Origin: a virus
Lineage: Duplodnaviria; Caudoviricetes
DNA: 64,000 bases
Virus record (IMG/VR): IMGVR_UViG_3300025601_000007
Reading direction: 5' to 3' (one strand)
The position numbers and the translations under genes were made by a program. This document shows, piece after piece, positions 4,185-24,839 of the stretch (the stretch's first letter is position 1; each line of letters begins with the position of its first letter). The notes under the pieces were generated by a model. The model was not told where the DNA came from. It worked only from the letters and a program-made list of their open reading frames with translations, and ran no database searches.

Positions 4185-4224
4185 TATTAAGAGGATAATT
4201 GACTATTAATTATAAAATAAAAAC

Positions 4225-4500
4225 ATGGAAACAGTTTGGAAAATAACTAACACAGGAAGATTAGACAAGATTAAGTTCACCGTTGCTATCGCATCGAATA
4301 AATCTCCAGGAGTATTCTTAAAGAAAGACGAATTTATTCTTTCACAAAAAAGAATGACTACAATGCTTGATGCCCAAGCCAAGAGAGGCTACGTGGCAAT
4401 TGAAGAATTTGAAAATGTAGACAACATCGTTATCGGAGAGGTAATGAAGATGTCGGATTCTGAGTACGCTCAGAAGCGAGTTCAAGATTACTCTAAGTGA
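4225..4500 (+). CDS. hypothetical protein, 91 aa
   Basis: ATG ORF with A-rich leader. Its stop overlaps the left end of the IS-like element. Confidence 0.75.
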   Translation: METVWKITNTGRLDKIKFTVAIASNKSPGVFLKKDEFILSQKRMTTMLDAQAKRGYVAIEEFENVDNIVIGEVMKMSDSEYAQKRVQDYSK

Positions 4501-4730
4501 ACTACCCACCCACGCCAGAGGCGATGGGATGGGCTTCAAGGGTCAACGCTCCAACTAGTGTTGGCAACTTACCTTGATTTTTTCTGTCAGTTCCTGACAA
4601 AATATTTCTTAATGTACAAAAATACAAAAGTTTAAAGAAATAACAAAATTTATTTAAAATAATTAAGATAAGGTCGCTTACATCCCACCCACACTACGTG
4701 ATGAGTGGGCTTTACGCTCCGTAATGTAAA
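4497..4730. mobile_element. non-autonomous IS200/IS605-family (TnpB-type) miniature element
   Basis: Begins GTGAACTACCCACCC-hairpin-GGGCTTC and ends GCTTACATCCCACCC-hairpin-GTGGGCTTTACGCTCC. These resemble subterminal palindromic ends of IS200/IS605 elements. No ORF inside. Confidence 0.65.
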
Positions 4731-5117
4731 AATGCAATTCAAGGTCAAAAAGAAGGAAGGCTAAAATGTGCTCCAGTATCAAAAGCTGAAAGAGAGATAG
4801 TAAATAGACTCAGAGAAAAAAGCATAAAATCTGAATCTCAGTTTTCGTTAGAATCATTCAAGTTCGACATATACATCCCTGATAAAAATCTTCTTATAGA
4901 ATATAATGGAGACTATTGGCATTGTAATCCTTTAAAATATTTACCTAGTTTTATTCATCCTCATAAAAACAAAACAGCTAAAGAACTTTGGAAAGCTGAT
5001 GATAATAAGAAAAAGCTTGCAATTAAGTCTGGATTCAATCACCTTACTATTTGGGAATCTGAATATAATGCAGATAAAAATAAAATAATAGAATCACTGA
5101 TATCATATGGAGAATAA
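4725..5117 (+). pseudogene. 5'-truncated DUF559/Vsr-like endonuclease
   Basis: Open frame with no start after an in-frame TAA at 4722. It reads FKFDIYIPDKNLLIEYNGDYWHCNP...HPHKNKTAKELW...LTIWESE and closely matches the C-terminus of ORF 46736-47800. Confidence 0.8.
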
Positions 5118-6396
5118 AAGAATTAAATTGCTAGTTTGCCCGTCAGATGTGCAAGGCGTCGGGCATTTTCGCTCAATCTGGATGGCTCAGCAACTTAGGA
5201 AATCCCACAAAGAGGAGCTCCAAATTAAGATTGATGTCACTCCTGATTTTACCAATATAAACTACCTGTCATCATTTGATATAATTCATTTCCACAGACA
5301 GCTTGGGCCATTTGAAGCATCTGAGAAACTATTCGCGGAGCTTCAATCCAAAGGGACTGTGCTGGTGATGGATATTGACGACTTCTGGAGTCCGCCTCCA
5401 ACTCACCCTCTTTATGATTTGGTGAAAGCTGAAAAAATTGACAAGCATATAGAGAACAATTTGAAACTTGTTGATTGGGTCACTACGACCACAGAGATTT
5501 TTGCAGAAAAAATCAAAGAGGTCAATAAAAATGTGGTTGTGATTCCGAACGCTGTAAACCCCGAAGCTAAGATGTGGAGGAGTGAAGCGGTTCCAAACCC
5601 TACTGACCGTACAAGAGTTGCTTGGATTGGTGGGTCATCTCACTTACATGACTTGTTTCTTCTGCGTGACTCAATGGAGATGCTTAATAAGGACCAAGAG
5701 CTGAAGGATAAGACACAGATTGTAATGTGTGGATTTGATACCAGAGGTAATCTGACCAGCATCGACGACAATGGGAACAGGCACGAAAGACCTATCCAAC
5801 CACACGAGACGATTTGGATGCAATTCGAAAGAATATTTACAGCAGACTACCAGCTTCTAAAAGAGGACAAGGAGTATTTTAACTGGCTGTATAAAATTAA
5901 AAATGAAAAGTATCCAAACATGGATGAAAAACCATATTTGAGACGCTGGACTTTACCTTTGAAAACATATGCAACCCATTACGACCATTGTGATGTTTGT
6001 TTAGCTCCTCTAGTAGACCATTACACTCAACAAGTAGGTCAGGGCCAGAAGGCAAAAATAGTTAAGCGACCTCACATTTTCAACAAAGTAAAATCTGAGT
6101 TGAAAGTTATTGAAGCGGGTGTTAAAAGAAAAGCGCTAATCGCGCAAGATTTCGGAATCTATTCTAAGACTATTAAAGACGGCGAGACGGGTATTTTGGT
6201 TAAGAACAACAAAAAGGGGTGGTATAACGCCATTAAGCAGGTTGTCGATGACCCTGGGTACCGACAGGAGCTTGCAGACAATCTTCACGACTGGGTGATG
6301 GATGAATATTCCATCGATAGAATTAATGGAATCAGAGCAAGTTTCTACGAGCAAGTTTACGAGGGAATGAAACAAAAAGACAAAATCATCGTATAG
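5107..6396 (+). CDS. glycosyltransferase (GT-B, family 4-like)
   Basis: GVGHFR, DIIHFHR, MDIDD, VVVIPNA, WIGGSSH, KSELKVIEAG, TGILVKN..W motifs. Confidence 0.85.
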   Translation: MENKRIKLLVCPSDVQGVGHFRSIWMAQQLRKSHKEELQIKIDVTPDFTNINYLSSFDIIHFHRQLGPFEASEKLFAELQSKGTVLVMDIDDFWSPPPTHPLYDLVKAEKIDKHIENNLKLVDWVTTTTEIFAEKIKEVNKNVVVIPNAVNPEAKMWRSEAVPNPTDRTRVAWIGGSSHLHDLFLLRDSMEMLNKDQELKDKTQIVMCGFDTRGNLTSIDDNGNRHERPIQPHETIWMQFERIFTADYQLLKEDKEYFNWLYKIKNEKYPNMDEKPYLRRWTLPLKTYATHYDHCDVCLAPLVDHYTQQVGQGQKAKIVKRPHIFNKVKSELKVIEAGVKRKALIAQDFGIYSKTIKDGETGILVKNNKKGWYNAIKQVVDDPGYRQELADNLHDWVMDEYSIDRINGIRASFYEQVYEGMKQKDKIIV

Positions 6397-17741: not shown

Positions 17742-17807
17742 TCAAGTTACATTTTGTTGTGTTGTCGTTTTTAGTCTCATATCAATTTTTGTTGTCTTTA
17801 GTCTCAT
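17742..17807 (-). pseudogene. truncated 12th array unit (MRLKTTKIDMRLKTTTQQNVT*)
   Basis: Two consecutive ATGAGACTAAA starts, then homology is lost. Confidence 0.7.
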
Positions 17808-18067
17808 GCCAATATAAGTCTTATTGTAGTCCAATCCCATTCAATCCAGGGGACAGGCCTAGCGGTCCCCTTGTGGATTTCAACGAACCAATCCCCAGGG
17901 AATCCATCAGGAAACCACACTTCATAAACCTCACCTGGCCTGTTTTGAAGACGCAACGCTACCAAATATGGGTACCGCTTCGTGGGTTCAAACCCACCAC
18001 GAATCAATGCGTCTTTGCATGCATCACTTGCATTACATGCATCTGTTTGTGCTGTTTTCAGTCTCAT
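17804..18067 (-). CDS. array unit 11, 87 aa, unknown function
   Basis: Paralog; ATGA overlap with neighbours. Confidence 0.85.
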   Translation of the reverse strand: MRLKTAQTDACNASDACKDALIRGGFEPTKRYPYLVALRLQNRPGEVYEVWFPDGFPGDWFVEIHKGTARPVPWIEWDWTTIRLILA

Positions 18068-18324
18068 ACCAAACTAAATATTATTGTATTGGTCCAATCC
18101 CAAGAAACAAAGCTGATGGTTTTGGGGCCAACAACGGTCCCTTTGTCGATTCGAACGAATCTATCCCCAAGGTATCCATAAGAATGGAAGTGCGCTCCAT
18201 AAACCACTTCACCTGGCTTATTTTGAAGCCGCAACTGCCACGGGCTGATAGTTTTAAACCCACCACGAATCAATTGTTCTTTGCATGCCTCTGTTGATGT
18301 CGTTTTTGCCGTTTTCAGTCTCAT
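18064..18324 (-). CDS. array unit 10, 86 aa
   Basis: Paralog; ATGA overlap. Confidence 0.85.
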   Translation of the reverse strand: MRLKTAKTTSTEACKEQLIRGGFKTISPWQLRLQNKPGEVVYGAHFHSYGYLGDRFVRIDKGTVVGPKTISFVSWDWTNTIIFSLV

Positions 18325-18584
18325 ACAAATATAAGTGTTATAGGATTAGAAGAATCCCATTCAATAAAGCCACGATGGTCTTTAGAGGCAAGCGTAACTA
18401 AAGACCCTTTATGGATTCGAACGAACCAATCACTGCGGTATCCATCAGGAGAGAGCCACACTTCATAAGCCTCACCTGACTTTTTTTCACCAAGCCACAA
18501 CCGCCAGAGGTGCCTTATCGAGGCTTCGAACCCACCACGAATCAATGCTTTTTGGCATGCATCTGTTGCTGTTTTTAGTCTCAT
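18321..18584 (-). CDS. array unit 9, 87 aa (start ATG 18584)
   Basis: MRLKT start overlaps the stop of unit 8. Confidence 0.85.
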   Translation of the reverse strand: MRLKTATDACQKALIRGGFEASIRHLWRLWLGEKKSGEAYEVWLSPDGYRSDWFVRIHKGSLVTLASKDHRGFIEWDSSNPITLIFV

Positions 18585-18847
18585 ACCAATATAAGTGTTA
18601 TTACATTGGTCCAATCCCAATCAACCCAACCATCGCTGATTTTGGGGCCAGCAACGGTTTCTTTGCGGATTCGAACGAACCAATCCCTTCGGTCTCCATC
18701 GTGAGGAAACCACACTTGATAAATCACTGGACCTGGCTTTTCTCCACCAAGTTGCAAAACCAAACACTGTGGGTTGTTCGCGTCTTCGAACCCGCCACGA
18801 AGCAATGTCTCTTGGCATGCGTTTGCTGTTGTCGTTTTCAGTCTCAT
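18581..18847 (-). CDS. array unit 8, 88 aa
   Basis: Paralog; ATGA overlap. Confidence 0.85.
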   Translation of the reverse strand: MRLKTTTANACQETLLRGGFEDANNPQCLVLQLGGEKPGPVIYQVWFPHDGDRRDWFVRIRKETVAGPKISDGWVDWDWTNVITLILV

Positions 18848-19122
18848 ATCAATTTAAGCCTTATTTCACTGGTCCAATCCCAATCAACCGAACTGTTGGA
18901 GGCAGGCCCAATGGTCCCTTTGTGGATTCGAAAAAATAAATACCAACGGTATCCATCGCGAGGGAACCACACATCATAAGCCTCACCTGGCTTGTCTCCT
19001 CCAAGACGCAACTCAAAAGCCCGCGAGCTGTACGTCGTGTCTTCGAACCCACCACGAATCAATGCCTCTTGGCATGCATCGCTTGCATCGCATGCATCTT
19101 TTGTTGTCGTTTTCAGTTTCAT
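18844..19122 (-). CDS. array unit 7, 92 aa
   Basis: Paralog; ATGA overlap. Confidence 0.85.
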   Translation of the reverse strand: MKLKTTTKDACDASDACQEALIRGGFEDTTYSSRAFELRLGGDKPGEAYDVWFPRDGYRWYLFFRIHKGTIGPASNSSVDWDWTSEIRLKLI

Positions 19123-19370
19123 ACCAATCTAAGTCTTATTGTACTGGTCCAATCCCAATCAACCCCGCTGATGGTTTTGGAGCCCCCAACGGTCCCCTTG
19201 TAGATTCGAACGAATCCGCTCCTACGGTATCCATCGCCAGGAAACCACGCTTCATAAACCTCACCTGATTTGTTTCCAAGACGCAACCGCCACATGTCCC
19301 CATTGTGTTTTTTGAACCCACGACGAATCAGTGCCTCTTGGCATGCATCTTTTGCCGTTTTTAGTTTCAT
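19119..19370 (-). CDS. array unit 6, 83 aa
   Basis: Paralog; ATGA overlap. Confidence 0.85.
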   Translation of the reverse strand: MKLKTAKDACQEALIRRGFKKHNGDMWRLRLGNKSGEVYEAWFPGDGYRRSGFVRIYKGTVGGSKTISGVDWDWTSTIRLRLV

Positions 19371-19636
19371 ACCAATATTAGGATTATTCTATTGGAAAAA
19401 TCCCAATCACCGTTGTCTTTGTAGCCAACAACAGTCCCTTTGTAGATTCGAACAAATTCACCCTCAAGGTATCCATCATTAGGGAACCACAAATCATAAA
19501 CCTCGCCTGGCTTGTCTCCTCCAAGACGCAACTCAAAAGCCTGCGAGCTGTACGTCGTGGTTTCACACCCACCACGAATCAATGCCTCTTTGCATGCATC
19601 TGTTGCGTCTTTTGTTTGTGCCGTTTTCAGTTTCAT
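19367..19636 (-). CDS. array unit 5, 89 aa
   Basis: Paralog; ATGA overlap. Confidence 0.85.
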   Translation of the reverse strand: MKLKTAQTKDATDACKEALIRGGCETTTYSSQAFELRLGGDKPGEVYDLWFPNDGYLEGEFVRIYKGTVVGYKDNGDWDFSNRIILILV

Positions 19637-19899
19637 ACCAATCTAAGTATTATTGTGTTGGTCCAATCCCAATTACCCAAACCGTTGGGGGCAGGCCAAA
19701 TGGTCCCTTTGTGGATTGTAACAAACAAATCCCAACGGTATCCATCAGGAGGGAACAACGCTTCACAAACCTCGCCTGGCTTGTCTCCTCCAAGACGCAA
19801 CAGACGCACGCTGTACGTCACGTTTTCAAACCCACCACGAAGCAATACCTCTTTGCATGCGTCTGTTGCGTCTTTTGTTTGTGCCGTTTTCAGTTTCAT
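19633..19899 (-). CDS. array unit 4, 88 aa
   Basis: Paralog; ATGA overlap. Confidence 0.85.
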   Translation of the reverse strand: MKLKTAQTKDATDACKEVLLRGGFENVTYSVRLLRLGGDKPGEVCEALFPPDGYRWDLFVTIHKGTIWPAPNGLGNWDWTNTIILRLV

Positions 19900-20171
19900 A
19901 CCAATCTAAGTATTATTTTGTTGGTCCTATCCCAAAAAACAAAGCCAATGCTGGTTTTGGAGGCAGCGGTCCCTTTGTAAATTCGAACAAATTCACCCTC
20001 AAGGTGTCCATCACAATAGAACCACACATCATAAACCTCGCCTGGCTTGTCTCCTCCAAGATGCAGCCCCTCTGTGCTGTTCGTCATGGTTTCACACCCA
20101 CCACGAATCAGTGCCTCTTTGCATGCATCTGTTGCATCTTTTGCATTTGTTTTTTCTGTTTTTAGTCTCAT
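19896..20171 (-). CDS. array unit 3, 91 aa (start ATG 20171)
   Basis: MRLKT start overlaps the stop of unit 2. Confidence 0.85.
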   Translation of the reverse strand: MRLKTEKTNAKDATDACKEALIRGGCETMTNSTEGLHLGGDKPGEVYDVWFYCDGHLEGEFVRIYKGTAASKTSIGFVFWDRTNKIILRLV

Positions 20172-20410
20172 ACAAATGTAAGTATTATTGTACTGGAAGA
20201 ATCCCAATCACCGTTGTCTTTGTAGCCAACAACAGTCCCTTTGGTGATTCGAACGAACCAATCCCAACGGTATCCACGAGGGAACCACACATCATAAACC
20301 TCACCTGGCTTGTCTCCTCCAAGACTCAACCACTGCGAGCTGTACTTGGTTTTAAACCCACTACGAATCAATTGTTCTTTGCATGCATCTTTTGCCGTTT
20401 TCAGTCTCAT
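20168..20410 (-). CDS. array unit 2, 80 aa
   Basis: Paralog; ATGA overlap. Confidence 0.85.
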   Translation of the reverse strand: MRLKTAKDACKEQLIRSGFKTKYSSQWLSLGGDKPGEVYDVWFPRGYRWDWFVRITKGTVVGYKDNGDWDSSSTIILTFV

Positions 20411-20667
20411 ACCAATCTAAGTTTTATTGTGTTGGTCCAATCCCAATCATACCAACCGATGCTGTTTTTGGGGCCAGCAGTCCCTTTGTCGATTTCAACA
20501 GACCAATCACTGGGGTATCCATCATTAGGGAACCACGCATCATAAACCACTTCACCTGGCTTGTCTCCACCAAGACGCAAAACCTGCGAGCTGTACTTAT
20601 CGTCTTTGAACCCACGACGAAGCAATTGCTTTTTGCATGCATCTGTTTGTGCCGTTTTCAGTTTCAT
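20407..20667 (-). CDS. array unit 1, 86 aa
   Basis: First complete paralog. It is preceded by a DWTNTIILKLV* remnant (20664-20699) and a CGTATATT motif (20724-20731). Confidence 0.85.
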   Translation of the reverse strand: MKLKTAQTDACKKQLLRRGFKDDKYSSQVLRLGGDKPGEVVYDAWFPNDGYPSDWSVEIDKGTAGPKNSIGWYDWDWTNTIKLRLV

Positions 20668-20753
20668 ACCAATTTAAGTATTATTGTATTGGTCCAATCC
20701 AAACATCGCTGTGTTTATGAAAAAATATACGTTAATTTTCAATAAGGGTTACA

Positions 20754-21950
20754 TTAGTAACTAACGGGAAAAGGAATCACATCGTGAATCTTCTCCGCTT
20801 TCGTCAAGAACATAACCAGGCGCTCAAATCCCATTCCGAACCCAGCATGTGGAACCGTCCCCCATTTACGAGTGTCTAGATACCATTGCATAGATTTTGA
20901 ATCCACGCCAGCTTCTTCCATTTGAGTTTTTAGCGTATCGTGGTCCTCTTCTCGAACAGAGCCTCCAATCAACTCTCCAACTTCTGGGAACACCAGGTCA
21001 AAACAAATTGCCTTTCCACCTTCTCTCTTCATATAAAATGGTTTGAGGTCCTGTGGCCAGTGAGTGATAAACACAGGGCCTTTGTGGTGCGCAACTATTT
21101 CACGCTCTAGTTCAGTTCCTACATCTTCTCCATATGACAAACCAAACTCATCACATACTTCTTGATATGTTATTCGAGAATACCTGGCACCAACCTCAGA
21201 TTTAAGTGATTCCAAGGTTACTCCCAACTCTTTTTGATGGCCACTTTTACCAAGTGAAACAGCCACTTTGGCAATTGTCATTCTCAGCATAGACTCGGCA
21301 AAATCCATTATTTGCTCTAAGTCATAATGAGCCAGCTCAGGTTCAATCATCCAGAACTCAGACAAATGCTTTCTGGTTGATGATTTTTCAGCTCGAAAAC
21401 ATGGACCAAAAGTGTAGATTTTCCCCAACGCCATCATACCAACTTCTCCATGAAGCTGACCCGAAACCGTTAAATGTCGTTTGAGCCATTCTGATTCGGC
21501 TGAAAACTGTTCTCCAGCACCCTCACAATCTGAGCTGGTCATAATCGGTGTGTGATATTGAGATACTGACTCCTCATGCATAAACGAGTGTAATGCAAAG
21601 CTTGTTTCGCTTCGTGCGTGCATAATAGCGCACATGCGTCGGTCTCGCCCTCGTGTCTGAGGAATCGTTCTAAGAAAGCTTGAAGAGTGAAATTTAGGCT
21701 GAACTGGGTAATCTTCTCCAGACTCGCCAAGAACCTCAATTGAAGTTGCTTTGAATTCATAATCTCCCCTGGGGGTTCTCCCATCTTCACCCTGCATTTG
21801 AATAGACGCTCCAGCAGATAACCCTAGGGAGACTTCGCAGTCTGAGTGTTTTATTGTTACTTGAAATTCCTCTTGCCCGTCCGTGACGGCTAAGAATGTT
21901 AATGCTTTGGATTTACGCACGGAACGAATCCATCCTTGTCTTGTTTTCAT
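20754..21950 (-). CDS. asnS: asparaginyl-tRNA synthetase
   Basis: OB-fold start GWIRSVR, HTPI.TSSDCEGAGEQF, LTVSGQLH, FGPCFRAE.S.TRKHLSEFWMIEPE, ELIGGSVRE, PHAGFGMGFER. Confidence 0.93.
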   Translation of the reverse strand: MKTRQGWIRSVRKSKALTFLAVTDGQEEFQVTIKHSDCEVSLGLSAGASIQMQGEDGRTPRGDYEFKATSIEVLGESGEDYPVQPKFHSSSFLRTIPQTRGRDRRMCAIMHARSETSFALHSFMHEESVSQYHTPIMTSSDCEGAGEQFSAESEWLKRHLTVSGQLHGEVGMMALGKIYTFGPCFRAEKSSTRKHLSEFWMIEPELAHYDLEQIMDFAESMLRMTIAKVAVSLGKSGHQKELGVTLESLKSEVGARYSRITYQEVCDEFGLSYGEDVGTELEREIVAHHKGPVFITHWPQDLKPFYMKREGGKAICFDLVFPEVGELIGGSVREEDHDTLKTQMEEAGVDSKSMQWYLDTRKWGTVPHAGFGMGFERLVMFLTKAEKIHDVIPFPVSY

Positions 21951-21977
21951 TTGTTTATTTTAAAAAAGTTTGGGCAC

Positions 21978-22004
21978 AAAAAAAACCGCTTAGTAGCGGC
22001 TTTT
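21978..22004 (-). terminator. attenuator terminator in the asnS leader
   Basis: Minus strand AAAAGCCGCT-acta-AGCGG-T8, about 30 nt upstream of the asnS ATG. Confidence 0.8.
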
Positions 22005-22027
22005 GAATATCGATGTTTTTCTATCCC

Positions 22028-22105
22028 TTAATTGGACATAACAACCTTATTCATCAGCCGATTGGCGATGTTATTAAAATTGTTATTTAGAGAAAATGTT
22101 GTCAT
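22028..22105 (-). CDS. Asn-rich leader peptide, 25 aa (not in ORF track)
   Basis: Translated by hand: MTTFSLNNNFNNIANRLMNKVVMSN*; 8 of 25 residues are Asn. Confidence 0.8.
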   Translation of the reverse strand: MTTFSLNNNFNNIANRLMNKVVMSN

Positions 22106-22124
22106 TGTCTTTTGAAGTCAGTTG

Positions 22125-22132
22125 CAAGTATA
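22125..22132 (-). promoter_or_regulatory. putative Bacteroidota-type -7 promoter element for leader-asnS
   Basis: TATACTTG, one mismatch to TAnnTTTG, 20 nt upstream of the leader ATG. Confidence 0.45.
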
Positions 22133-22185
22133 TAGATAAAATATTACAATACGCAGAATTATTACGATTTTAACCATATAAAGTT

Positions 22186-22566
22186 TCACTTTATAAAGCG
22201 ACGACCCATGATTCTGAAGTCTATTAAGGGAATGTGAAAAATTTCAGTGTTTCTTTTAAAATCTCTATAAGCAGCTCTCCATCTAAAGCCTTGAACTAAA
22301 TGACTTACTAGTAGAGCAAAAAATAGGCTCACAAAATAAGTTATAGAAACCCATAATCCCCACCCTCCAGATTTACCGCTCATATAAAGAATGCTGTCAA
22401 TTAGCCAAATCAAAATAAAAACTGCTTTGACCCAGTTTTTTGCTAGGGTTTTTTTGTAAACTTTGAGTACTGTTTTTTGCCACGGACTGTCATATACATA
22501 AGTTTCAACTGCCTCCTGGATTGCATTTGTATCGTCTTGGTTCAGTATATATGTTGCTTTTTCCAT
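22186..22566 (-). CDS. hypothetical membrane protein (2 TM)
   Basis: Two hydrophobic segments, WVKAVFILIWLIDSILY and WGLWVSITYFVSLFFALLVS. Confidence 0.7.
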   Translation of the reverse strand: MEKATYILNQDDTNAIQEAVETYVYDSPWQKTVLKVYKKTLAKNWVKAVFILIWLIDSILYMSGKSGGWGLWVSITYFVSLFFALLVSHLVQGFRWRAAYRDFKRNTEIFHIPLIDFRIMGRRFIK

Positions 22567-22647
22567 ATTTTTTATTTTACAATTATAATCATTTCCAATG
22601 TTGGAATAACTTACATTACATTTCTTAGCAACTCAGTAATATTTTTG

Positions 22648-23295
22648 CTAGCTTCCAGCAAGGGTATTTTTTTTACCAGCCTCCAATAGTATTTTTCTAA
22701 TTTGATTTCTAATTTGGGTTTCCCAAATAAAAGGATGAGCCTGCACGGCCTTCTTGTAATGAAGCTTTGCTGGGACTTTCATAAAAATCTCATACTCTAT
22801 TGTTAACTTTCTTCCGTCAGCTAAAGTCATATCAATGTATGTACATTGGTCTTTTTTAGATAAGAAAGAAAACATTTTAGGACCCATTTCACGCCCAAGT
22901 TCTAGCGTTTTATTGCAATAGTATTTTTTTAATTTATGAGGAGCTGCATCAAACTCAGCATCAGAAAGTCCTGTTTTTTTTGACAAAACCACATCAATAT
23001 ACAGTTTTTTTAGGTTGAAAGGCAATTGACCGAACTCAGCTATAGATACCCACCGCTTTTTTTCGATGTATTTCTCCATTTGAGAATGAGTAGCAGCTTC
23101 AATTTCGTGGCGTTCAAGCTCTTTTATTTGTGCAATTAAAACATTAATATAGCACTTTTTTTGCGCTTTCGTAGCTGCAACAGTTTCGTCTTTATTCAAA
23201 CGAATGCCCTTTTCTAGGAGATTGTCTATAAAATCCTTTTTTTCCCGCTTAGATTTATTATTAAAATCTTTTCTCTCGAAATGCACCATGTCCAT
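22648..23295 (-). CDS. hypothetical protein (start likely ATG 23295 or 23289)
   Basis: K-rich ORF with internal helical repeats (KK.YI...L). A TATTTAT motif sits at the start. Confidence 0.7.
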   Translation of the reverse strand: MDMVHFERKDFNNKSKREKKDFIDNLLEKGIRLNKDETVAATKAQKKCYINVLIAQIKELERHEIEAATHSQMEKYIEKKRWVSIAEFGQLPFNLKKLYIDVVLSKKTGLSDAEFDAAPHKLKKYYCNKTLELGREMGPKMFSFLSKKDQCTYIDMTLADGRKLTIEYEIFMKVPAKLHYKKAVQAHPFIWETQIRNQIRKILLEAGKKNTLAGS

Positions 23296-23371
23296 AAATA
23301 GGTCAGGTTTTGCTAACGCAAACCCTCTGTAGAAGCTTATTTTCAACCTATTTAATAGAAAGACTTATAAA

Positions 23372-23650
23372 ATGGCACAACACAACGCAAATTACACAAT
23401 AGTCCCTTTTGCTTCAGGGGCAAATGGGAAGCACATCTGCGGAGATGGCGTCTCCGCATCTACTGTGCACCAAGTATACTGCACATCAGGGGGCGCTGTA
23501 ACAATTGTAGCACTCGGAGGAGGAAATTTAACTGTGACTTTAGCTGCTGGACAGTATGTGAATGTTCTATGTAGCAGTGTTAATGTTGGTTCAGGAGCTT
23601 TTGTTGGCTTTAGGGCACTAGCAAATAGAGGAAATAGATTACTAGGATAA
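23372..23650 (+). CDS. small Gly/Ala/Val-rich protein, probably virion-associated
   Basis: Beta-rich composition; first gene of the neck cluster. Confidence 0.65.
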   Translation: MAQHNANYTIVPFASGANGKHICGDGVSASTVHQVYCTSGGAVTIVALGGGNLTVTLAAGQYVNVLCSSVNVGSGAFVGFRALANRGNRLLG

Positions 23651-23660
23651 TAAAAAACAA

Positions 23661-24839
23661 ATGAGCGCATCAATAATCGGCTGCCTAACAGGGGTCACAT
23701 CATCAGAAAAGAGTAGAATATACAACAGGATTAAGATGTTGCTGGGTGCGCCTGTTGTTAAGGTTGAACTTCGTGATGAGCAATTTGAAGCGATGGTATG
23801 TCATAGTATTGAAGAATATTCTGTACACGTTGCAGACTGGTTTCTTCAAAATCAGCTTGCTGAAATTTTAGGTGTACCTAGTGAAATTGATTTGACATTA
23901 AAATATGTAGCAAACACGCAGTATTTTGAACGCTCTTGGGCATCTTCTATTGGTGAACAGATTGGATTAGGTGCTAATGGAAATAGAGAGCTTAAAACAG
24001 GGGTTATAGAGCTTACTGGGGGAACTCAAGACTACCTTATACAAGCGAATCGAGAAGTTATCGAGATTCTTTGGTTTACTCCGTCGTTTATCAATTTGTT
24101 TGGTCTTGACCCGTTCGCTAATACTAATATTGCATTTTCAGAATTCGGCGCATCTTTCGCTGGACATTCAATGTATCACGTAATGCCTGTGTTTGACACT
24201 ATCATGACTGCGCAGGCTGCGGAAATGAGGAACAGGGTTCGTGGGCACGAATACTCGTACAGTATACACCCAGGGCCAGATGGAACAAAACGAGTACGAC
24301 TATATCCAATTCCAAGAAACACATCGACCGCTGGGTCTAGTGTTGGTATTGGAGGTGGTGCTGGAACACCAGGAACATGTTACTATAGATACTACGATAG
24401 GACTTCAGGAAATGGAAACCCAGAATATTCTGGAACTTCAGCAAACCCTGGTTACACTGCATCGACAAGCACTGAACAAGGAAACGGGCTTGTTAGTTCT
24501 TTTGCTGATGCAGGATTCCATAATCTAAATTATGACCAATTAAACGACAAGTCAAAGAAGTGGGTTCTGGATTATACGTTCGCTTTGGCCGCAAGAACAC
24601 TTGGGCCAATGATTCGAGGAAAGTTTGACGGACAATTGCCTATCCCAGACGCGGAGCTCCGATTAAACTCAAATACACTGCTTGACATATCCAATCGTGA
24701 GATGGATAGGTTATATAAAAAACTAGAGGATGAACTCGAAAGACTCTCCTTCCGAAAGATTATGGAAGACAGGGCATCGATTCAAGAAAATCTCAACAAA
24801 TCTCAAAGTTTCGGACCGCTTGATATCTGGATATACTAA
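23661..24839 (+). CDS. neck/head-tail adaptor protein (T4 gp13-like)
   Basis: RIKMLLGAPVVKVEL...WVLDYTFALA..GMIRGKF...LNSNTLL pattern and gene context. Confidence 0.7.
   Translation: MSASIIGCLTGVTSSEKSRIYNRIKMLLGAPVVKVELRDEQFEAMVCHSIEEYSVHVADWFLQNQLAEILGVPSEIDLTLKYVANTQYFERSWASSIGEQIGLGANGNRELKTGVIELTGGTQDYLIQANREVIEILWFTPSFINLFGLDPFANTNIAFSEFGASFAGHSMYHVMPVFDTIMTAQAAEMRNRVRGHEYSYSIHPGPDGTKRVRLYPIPRNTSTAGSSVGIGGGAGTPGTCYYRYYDRTSGNGNPEYSGTSANPGYTASTSTEQGNGLVSSFADAGFHNLNYDQLNDKSKKWVLDYTFALAARTLGPMIRGKFDGQLPIPDAELRLNSNTLLDISNREMDRLYKKLEDELERLSFRKIMEDRASIQENLNKSQSFGPLDIWIY

Follow-up and report, generated by a model that had tools for sequence, protein, structure and literature searches.

The stretch of DNA analysed, referred to as the window, comprises 64,000 nucleotides of the IMG/VR entry IMGVR_UViG_3300025601_000007, a 92-kb record (GC 38% over its whole length) that is estimated to be 29% complete and in which no tRNA genes were found. 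The phage origin of the window is indicated by the presence of genes for a major head protein, a tail sheath and a terminase. The DNA was matched in 20 sequencing runs, all of them DNA runs from salt lakes that may be its source, and in no RNA run. The locus considered here consists of a gene for a short asparaginyl-tRNA synthetase (AsnRS), asnS, preceded on the same strand by an intrinsic terminator, a small open reading frame rich in asparagine codons, a promoter-like box and a gene of 126 aa. The coordinates of these features, and of the RNA strands discussed below, are presented in Table 1.

Table 1. Features of the asnS locus, in positions of the 64,000-nt window.
Feature	Coordinates	Strand	Details
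asnS, phage-type short asparaginyl-tRNA synthetase, 398 aa	20754..21950	minus	assigned from Pfam, TIGR00457 and PDB matches and tree
Intrinsic terminator, 10-bp stem + U8	21978..22004	minus	left arm 22004-21995, loop ACUA 21994-21991, right arm 21990-21981, U8 21985-21978
Segment 3, antiterminator 3' strand, overlapping the terminator left arm	21997..22009	minus	constrained folds, shuffles
Leader ORF, 25 codons + TAA, 8 Asn	22028..22105	minus	ATG 22105, TAA 22030-22028
Anti-antiterminator 3' strand, codons 19-23	22038..22049	minus	MFE folds
Segment 2, antiterminator 5' strand, codons 16-20	22048..22060	minus	pairs with 22009-21997 under a ribosome footprint on the Asn codons
Inner hairpin of the off state (CAUCGCC / GGC.GAUG)	22052..22070	minus	sequesters most of the antiterminator 5' strand; forms in L012 too
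Regulatory Asn run, codons 7-12 (AAT AAC AAT TTT AAT AAC)	22070..22087	minus	in-frame Asn run kept in all 11 leaders
Segment 1, anti-antiterminator 5' strand, on Asn codons	22075..22086	minus	pairs with 22049-22038 in the free-RNA MFE fold
Promoter-like -7 box TATACTTG	22125..22132	minus	19 nt upstream of the leader ATG; one mismatch to TAnnTTTG
Upstream gene, 126 aa	22566-22186	same strand as asnS	

Judged by its sequence, the gene behind the terminator encodes an AsnRS. Its product combines the Pfam tRNA-synt_2 domain with an OB anticodon domain, its best PDB matches are AsnRS structures, and it scores 370.9 bits against TIGR00457 (asnS), above the curated cut-off of 342.6, with the AspRS and LysRS models scoring far below TIGR00457. 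The score against a second equivalog model, NF003037, is just short of its cut-off (397.1 vs 414). Class II motifs 2 and 3 are kept, the FRAEKS and GFGxGxxR columns being invariant in 30 relatives. In the tree, the window AsnRS falls inside a phage-type clade with 100/100 support, apart from the cellular AsnRS. Phage-type members are about 388-416 aa long, compared with 447-484 aa for the cellular sequences of the tree, and many of them lie on contigs of 0.4-0.7 Mb.

An earlier note on this DNA had described a leader of 25 aa with eight Asn residues, five of them within codons 7-12, followed by a terminator with a U8 run ahead of the asnS start. This observation is confirmed: both elements are present on the minus strand, and all coordinates and base pairs are right. 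The Asn residues occupy codons 7, 8, 9, 11, 12, 15, 19 and 25. The right arm of the terminator hairpin (22004-21978, -11.4 kcal/mol) overlaps the U8 run, and the asnS ATG, at 21950, is located 28 nt past that run. A terminator scan of 20500-23800 returned this terminator-like site as the only one, which the program listed under the other strand. The leader is equally singular: with both strands of the 64-kb window considered, 1008 ATG-initiated ORFs have 8-45 codons, and the leader is the only one among them with at least 4 Asn in 6 codons. Two such Asn-rich ORFs exist in the whole 92-kb record, and a terminator-like hairpin adjoins only the one before asnS.

The alternative structures of the window RNA were evaluated on nascent transcripts, with the RNA ending short of the terminator right arm and the ribosome represented by a 28-nt footprint whose A site is placed on a chosen codon. 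In the free nascent RNA (-20.4 kcal/mol), the Asn codons pair with the segment downstream to form an anti-antiterminator (the 1:2 helix), and the left arm of the terminator is unpaired. With the ribosome on Asn codon 7, 9 or 12, the minimum free energy structure (-20.0 to -18.6 kcal/mol) becomes an antiterminator (2:3) of 5 + 6 bp separated by a 2x2 internal loop, in which 22060-22056 pair with 22001-21997 and 22053-22048 pair with 22009-22004, the helix enclosing a small loop that is itself structured. This is the 11-bp antiterminator proposed in the earlier note between 22060-22048 and 22009-21997, now recovered as the optimal fold of the nascent RNA with a ribosome on codons 7-12. The choice between antiterminator and terminator (3:4) in the earlier scheme is supported; what the scheme lacked is the fourth element, the 1:2 pairing of codons 7-11 with codons 19-23. 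Given that the inner hairpin formed along with this pairing ties up most of the antiterminator strand, an RNA that is untranslated or freely translated would be expected to terminate.

In comparison with dinucleotide shuffles, the 1:2 duplex between the Asn codons and the downstream segment is stabilized (-11.4 vs -4.3 kcal/mol, p=0.004), and the window antiterminator duplex (-14.0 vs -9.6 kcal/mol, p=0.055) is marginal when taken alone. When the full-length free RNA is folded, the 1:2 helix and the terminator form together, and masking ribosome positions in such equilibrium folds never removes the terminator. Full-length equilibrium folding is hence uninformative as a test of the switch, and the truncated RNAs were used instead; it also implies that the switch, if it operates, must be kinetic. 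In the window and in its nearest leader-bearing relative (L012, described below), the antiterminator strand lies five codons ahead of the stop codon, so that a ribosome at the stop leaves it uncovered. The off state of these two leaders would hence rely on steric exclusion and on refolding of the 1:2 helix, which are beyond the folding program.

In total, 21 distinct phage-type asnS loci were recovered, and an Asn-rich leader followed by a terminator is found in 11 of them, distributed among four sequence families. Similar leaders in related phages, which the earlier note had pointed to as a thing to look for, do therefore exist. Family A comprises the window and L012, with leaders of 25 codons; the L012 leader differs from that of the window in four residues, with the Asn run kept. 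Family B comprises L002 (the 635-kb sequence LR745206.1), L193, L191, L176, L181 and L178, with leaders of 15-16 codons, family C comprises L003 and L187, with leaders of 15 codons, and family D consists of L195, whose leader of 22 codons contains 7 Asn. The terminator stems are unrelated across the four families, with core motifs GCCGC, CCCAUCAG, CCCUGUCAG and GCCUGAAC. In every family, the leader has at its 3' end a strand that duplicates the terminator right arm and is able to pair with the left arm. The stop codon of the leader lies inside this strand in families B and C, and in family D 3 nt separate the end of the strand from the stop. The one feature conserved in all 11 leaders is the in-frame run of Asn codons.

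The three-state folds obtained for the window are also found in seven further representatives (L012, L002, L176, L178, L003, L187 and L195). In families B, C and D, placing the ribosome at the stop codon abolishes the antiterminator, whose energy is then 0 to -4.3 kcal/mol, versus -11.5 to -15.8 kcal/mol with the ribosome on the Asn run. The truncated free RNA of L012 already favours the antiterminator (-21.2 kcal/mol), and the default-off state is not clear-cut in this member. The antiterminator duplexes are better than dinucleotide shuffles in eight of nine sequences (p=0.005-0.046, with p=0.005 for L012), the exception being the window with the value given above. The antiterminator of L193 reaches -14.8 kcal/mol.

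The comparison of leaders bears on whether the small ORF might be a functional micro-protein, with the hairpins only setting the end of its transcript. In favour of this, a loose N-terminal pattern is common to family A and families B, C and D (M, K or T, two variable residues, S/T, I/L, Asn). Apart from the Asn run, however, neither length (15-25 aa) nor sequence is conserved, the ORF occurs only before asnS, PHROGs gave no match for the neighbours of the ORF, and nothing suggests a peptide function. We regard this explanation as extremely improbable.

Covariation was assessed on eight sequences from families B and C. In the antiterminator, 85.9% of the cells are paired, dropping to 19-39% when the partner strand is slid, and three pairs are compensatory. 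The corresponding values are 97.7%, 27-53% and four compensatory pairs for the terminator, and 95.8%, 32-61% and four compensatory pairs for the anti-antiterminator. For each of the three helices, none of 500 column shuffles reached the observed covariation score, a count that is not to be read as a probability, as the sequences are related. Compensatory changes are thus present in all three helices, including the one absent from the earlier scheme, and covariation in related phages had been named in the earlier note as a check on its proposal. Some antiterminator pairs use bases from the terminator loop (e.g., A-U in L002 vs G-C in L176). Since these covarying bases belong to the loop, the terminator alone cannot explain such pairs. 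In the 1:2 helix, synonymous AAC/AAU changes are matched on the opposite strand, which is what would be expected of a sequence that both codes for Asn and pairs. Within family A, segment 1 of the window and that of L012 differ by a UUU-to-UUC change, which is likewise matched by an AAG-to-GAG change in segment 2, turning a U-A pair into C-G.

The AAU/AAC run also serves as one strand of a conserved helix, and its conservation could in part be due to structure. The element might then be a structure-only RNA switch that answers a ligand, a protein or uncharged tRNA, in the manner of a riboswitch or T-box, with the Asn ORF as a by-product of an AU-rich helix. Several results argue against this. 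The run is in frame with an ATG in all 11 leaders, with a stop codon in or next to the antiterminator strand; its variation is synonymous (AAU/AAC) and compensated on the other strand; and the lengths and sequences of the leaders vary between families while the Asn meaning stays. Rfam covariance models produced no T-box match in 21500-22700 at E up to 10, and no riboswitch match at that threshold. Moreover, the agreement between Asn codons in the leader and a cognate AsnRS behind it would have to be a coincidence. The structure-only explanation is accordingly considered unlikely.

The box upstream of the window leader resembles TAnnTTTG, the -7 consensus of Bacteroidota promoters, and may act as the promoter of the element. 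At the homologous position, L012 has TATATTTG, and exact TAnnTTTG boxes precede the leaders of eight relatives (L012, L002, L193, L176, L181, L178, L003 and L187), where they sit in the gap that separates the leader from the preceding gene or tRNA. The 28-nt spacer from the U-run to the asnS ATG contains no promoter-like box. If the boxes are promoters, the resulting order of promoter, leader, terminator and gene would make sense only with a regulated terminator. TAnnTTTG is not enriched in the window (66 occurrences vs 71 expected), hence the motif by itself lends no support to a host assignment.

Regarding translation, a Shine-Dalgarno-like 4-mer at -20 to -4 was found in only 6 of the 85 ORFs of at least 120 aa in the 92-kb record. 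A leader without such a motif is hence normal in this genome, and its absence is no argument against translation of the leader. The scarcity of these motifs also fits a host of Bacteroidota type, and the boxes of the relatives point the same way, with the window's own box one mismatch off. Only 4-5 nt separate the -7 box TATATTTG from the leader ATG in L002, L193, L176, L181, L003 and L187, all from families B and C. Such a short distance suggests the leader mRNA of these members may be leaderless or nearly so.

The element is absent from 10 of the 21 phage-type asnS loci, which indicates it is dispensable. One of these is L014, whose AsnRS is 74% identical to that of the window and in which a homologous upstream gene abuts asnS with no spacer, and another is L194, where a plain terminator and a promoter precede asnS. 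The patchy distribution would fit either an old origin with repeated loss or movement of the element between phages. In L013 (1400-1500), with an asnS 64% identical, two TAnnTTTG boxes and an AU-rich hairpin without a U-tract are present, and there is no leader ORF. In L009 (~1360-1430) and L189 (1059-1229), a conserved small ORF with the core TAGVYG...APFAFYN lies immediately upstream of asnS or overlaps it, in place of the Asn leader.

Alternatively, the window might simply have an ordinary terminator of the upstream gene (22566-22186) next to an incidental small ORF, with asnS transcribed by constitutive leak-through or from an unrecognised promoter. In L014, the homologous upstream gene is joined directly to asnS; in the window, that gene shares the strand of asnS and no other terminator follows it, and the promoter box is imperfect. 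Such an arrangement, however, would leave unexplained the unique Asn-rich ORF, the recurrence of the layout in four families with covarying antiterminator and 1:2 strands, and the consensus boxes that, in the relatives, stand after the upstream gene or tRNA and ahead of the leader. For these reasons, an ordinary terminator is deemed very unlikely.

The specificity of the layout was assessed on cellular controls, namely 160 asnS loci (about 35 from Bacteroidota, going by their record titles) obtained by AsnRS-alignment scans of metagenome and genome contigs. These scans were saturated by cellular AsnRS at ~40% identity and yielded no more phage loci. An Asn-rich small ORF with a terminator at most 400 nt upstream was found in none of the 160 cellular loci, also under a relaxed threshold. 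The similar leaders that the earlier note suggested looking for before asnS in Bacteroidota hosts were not seen among these controls. Scans of IMG/VR provided few phage-type asnS loci and no further family-A leader. A DNA pattern built from the family B and C leaders had a single IMG/VR match, located upstream of asnS on the L003 contig, and a single match in 596 Gb of prokaryote genomes. The latter (L190, Oxalobacteraceae) was rejected as a leader, as it lies inside a long open frame, shows no terminator within the 400 nt read, and looks like a chance match.

Loci L177 (917-1108) and L179 carry an AsnRS and a leader identical to those of L178 (1033-1105), with different upstream DNA; in both, the TAnnTTTG box is missing and the leader is fused in frame into a longer ORF of 63 aa. 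Judging from these sequences, the difference looks like a recombination joint right at the start of the leader.

The interpretation we favour, with a probability of roughly 80%, is that the element is a classical ribosome-mediated leader-peptide attenuator that would report the speed at which Asn codons are decoded and gate the phage AsnRS gene. The layout of ribosome-mediated attenuation had been recognised in the earlier note, and the predictions it makes for the leader codons, the terminator and the alternative helices are borne out at the sequence level in the window and its relatives. Transcription would start just upstream of the leader and produce an RNA with four segments: the Asn-codon run (1), codons 16-23 (2), the left arm of the terminator with the 6 nt upstream of it (3), and the right arm with U8 (4). 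When charged tRNA-Asn is plentiful, or the leader is untranslated, segment 2 would be covered by a ribosome or folded onto segment 1, segments 3 and 4 would form the terminator, and RNA polymerase would stop 28 nt before asnS. When charged tRNA-Asn is scarce, the ribosome would stall on codons 7-12 and melt the 1:2 helix; segment 2 would then capture segment 3, blocking the terminator, and asnS would be transcribed, possibly along with downstream genes. Leader translation, ribosome stalling, its coupling to the polymerase and the nature of the signal are all inferred from sequence, with transcription-translation coupling assumed for the host. The signal sensed could be Asn supply, the level of tRNA-Asn or AsnRS activity. 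The huge phages of four diverged groups that have this layout probably make AsnRS only when Asn codons are read slowly.

If this is true, the phage gauges the Asn-decoding capacity of its host in real time and makes AsnRS on demand. Huge phages carry synthetases and tRNAs, and the puzzle of the phage synthetases would become a testable question, namely which decoding steps limit phage translation. The classical set of leaders comprises Trp, His, Leu, Thr, Phe and Ile/Val; an Asn leader would join this set, and ribosome-mediated attenuation would then also cover viruses, as well as hosts whose translation starts without Shine-Dalgarno motifs. The four families with covarying helices also offer a ready alignment for a new RNA family model.

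Neither the mechanism nor its placement ahead of a synthetase gene is new, which puts the asnS element among attenuators of a known kind. The trpL, hisL, leuL, thrL and pheL leaders of enterobacterial biosynthetic operons have the same four segments, with the regulatory codons in segment 1 and the alternative pairings 1:2, 2:3 and 3:4, but they gate biosynthetic operons, whereas the asnS element would gate a synthetase gene. Synthetase genes are gated in this way in E. coli, where pheST, with its pheM leader, is an established attenuator. Classical attenuators have also been predicted for trpS and leuS of Streptomyces (Seliverstov et al. 2005, PMC1262725). Like the asnS element, the attenuators of pheST and of trpS and leuS combine a leader of cognate codons with alternative antiterminator and terminator hairpins before a synthetase gene, following the common logic that low charged tRNA leads to more synthetase. 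Unlike them, the asnS element is Asn-specific and phage-borne, is without a Shine-Dalgarno motif, has a putative -7 box of Bacteroidota type, and bears no sequence relation to them.

When Rfam leader models were applied to the window, the scores were below the gathering thresholds (24.6 bits vs 41 for Trp_leader, and 17.3 vs 50 for Leu_leader), with mostly the terminator covered. From its predicted architecture, the asnS element would work like Trp_leader, Leu_leader, Phe_leader and His_leader, but it belongs to none of these Rfam families.

In Firmicutes, asnS is among the genes preceded by T-box leaders. As in the proposed attenuator, transcription of the synthetase rises when charging of the cognate tRNA falls, through a choice between antiterminator and terminator. 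A T-box, however, senses uncharged tRNA directly and needs no translation, whereas the asnS element has an Asn-codon ORF that is putatively translated. The use of T-box leaders before aminoacyl-tRNA synthetase genes in Firmicutes is described in PMC1262725.

Full-text literature searches turned up neither a leader peptide for Asn nor an attenuator ahead of asnS, and no leader-peptide attenuator carried by a phage, so the impression in the earlier note that the phage case is undescribed held. Within the literature searched, the asnS element would be the first Asn-specific leader attenuator, and it is carried by a phage.

In L002 (LR745206.1), a second cassette was observed at 110-352, consisting of a TATATTTG box, an ORF of 38 codons (176-292) and a terminator (323-352), with the right arm of the latter repeated within the ORF. 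This ORF is rich in Asn, Leu, Thr, Met, Val and Ile. The cassette is located directly before an array of 19 tRNA genes (Asn, Arg, Leu, Val, Ile, Thr, Met), with tRNA-Asn first, and the array ends just upstream of the asnS attenuator. By its composition and position, it resembles a multivalent leader that would control the tRNA array. In comparison, the asnS leader of the window is monovalent (Asn only) and has a synthetase as cargo, similarly to pheST, whereas the L002 cassette stands before tRNA genes.

It is possible, at odds we place slightly below even, that huge phages with Bacteroidota-type signals use leader-peptide attenuation as an old and general layer of control over their translation-gene islands. 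Every tRNA block and every synthetase gene would then lie behind a codon-matched ORF of its own, the asnS module would have been patchily retained in a monophyletic clade of phage AsnRS, and the leaders of families B and C would be leaderless or near-leaderless. With such a layer, a phage would monitor decoding speed codon by codon and top up only what is limiting. Leaderless leaders in families B and C would amount to an attenuator without any ribosome-binding site.

The genes downstream of asnS are also of note. In the window, an array of 11 small overlapping genes occupies 17742-20753 on the minus strand. Given that the terminator scan showed no terminator-like site between the end of asnS (20754) and this array, the Asn attenuator may gate the array too. 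In L002, a class I synthetase-like gene of 392 aa (4196-5374), with a weak match to the ArgRS catalytic domain (26 bits), starts 20 nt after asnS. It is probably co-transcribed with asnS, in which case it would also be under the Asn leader.
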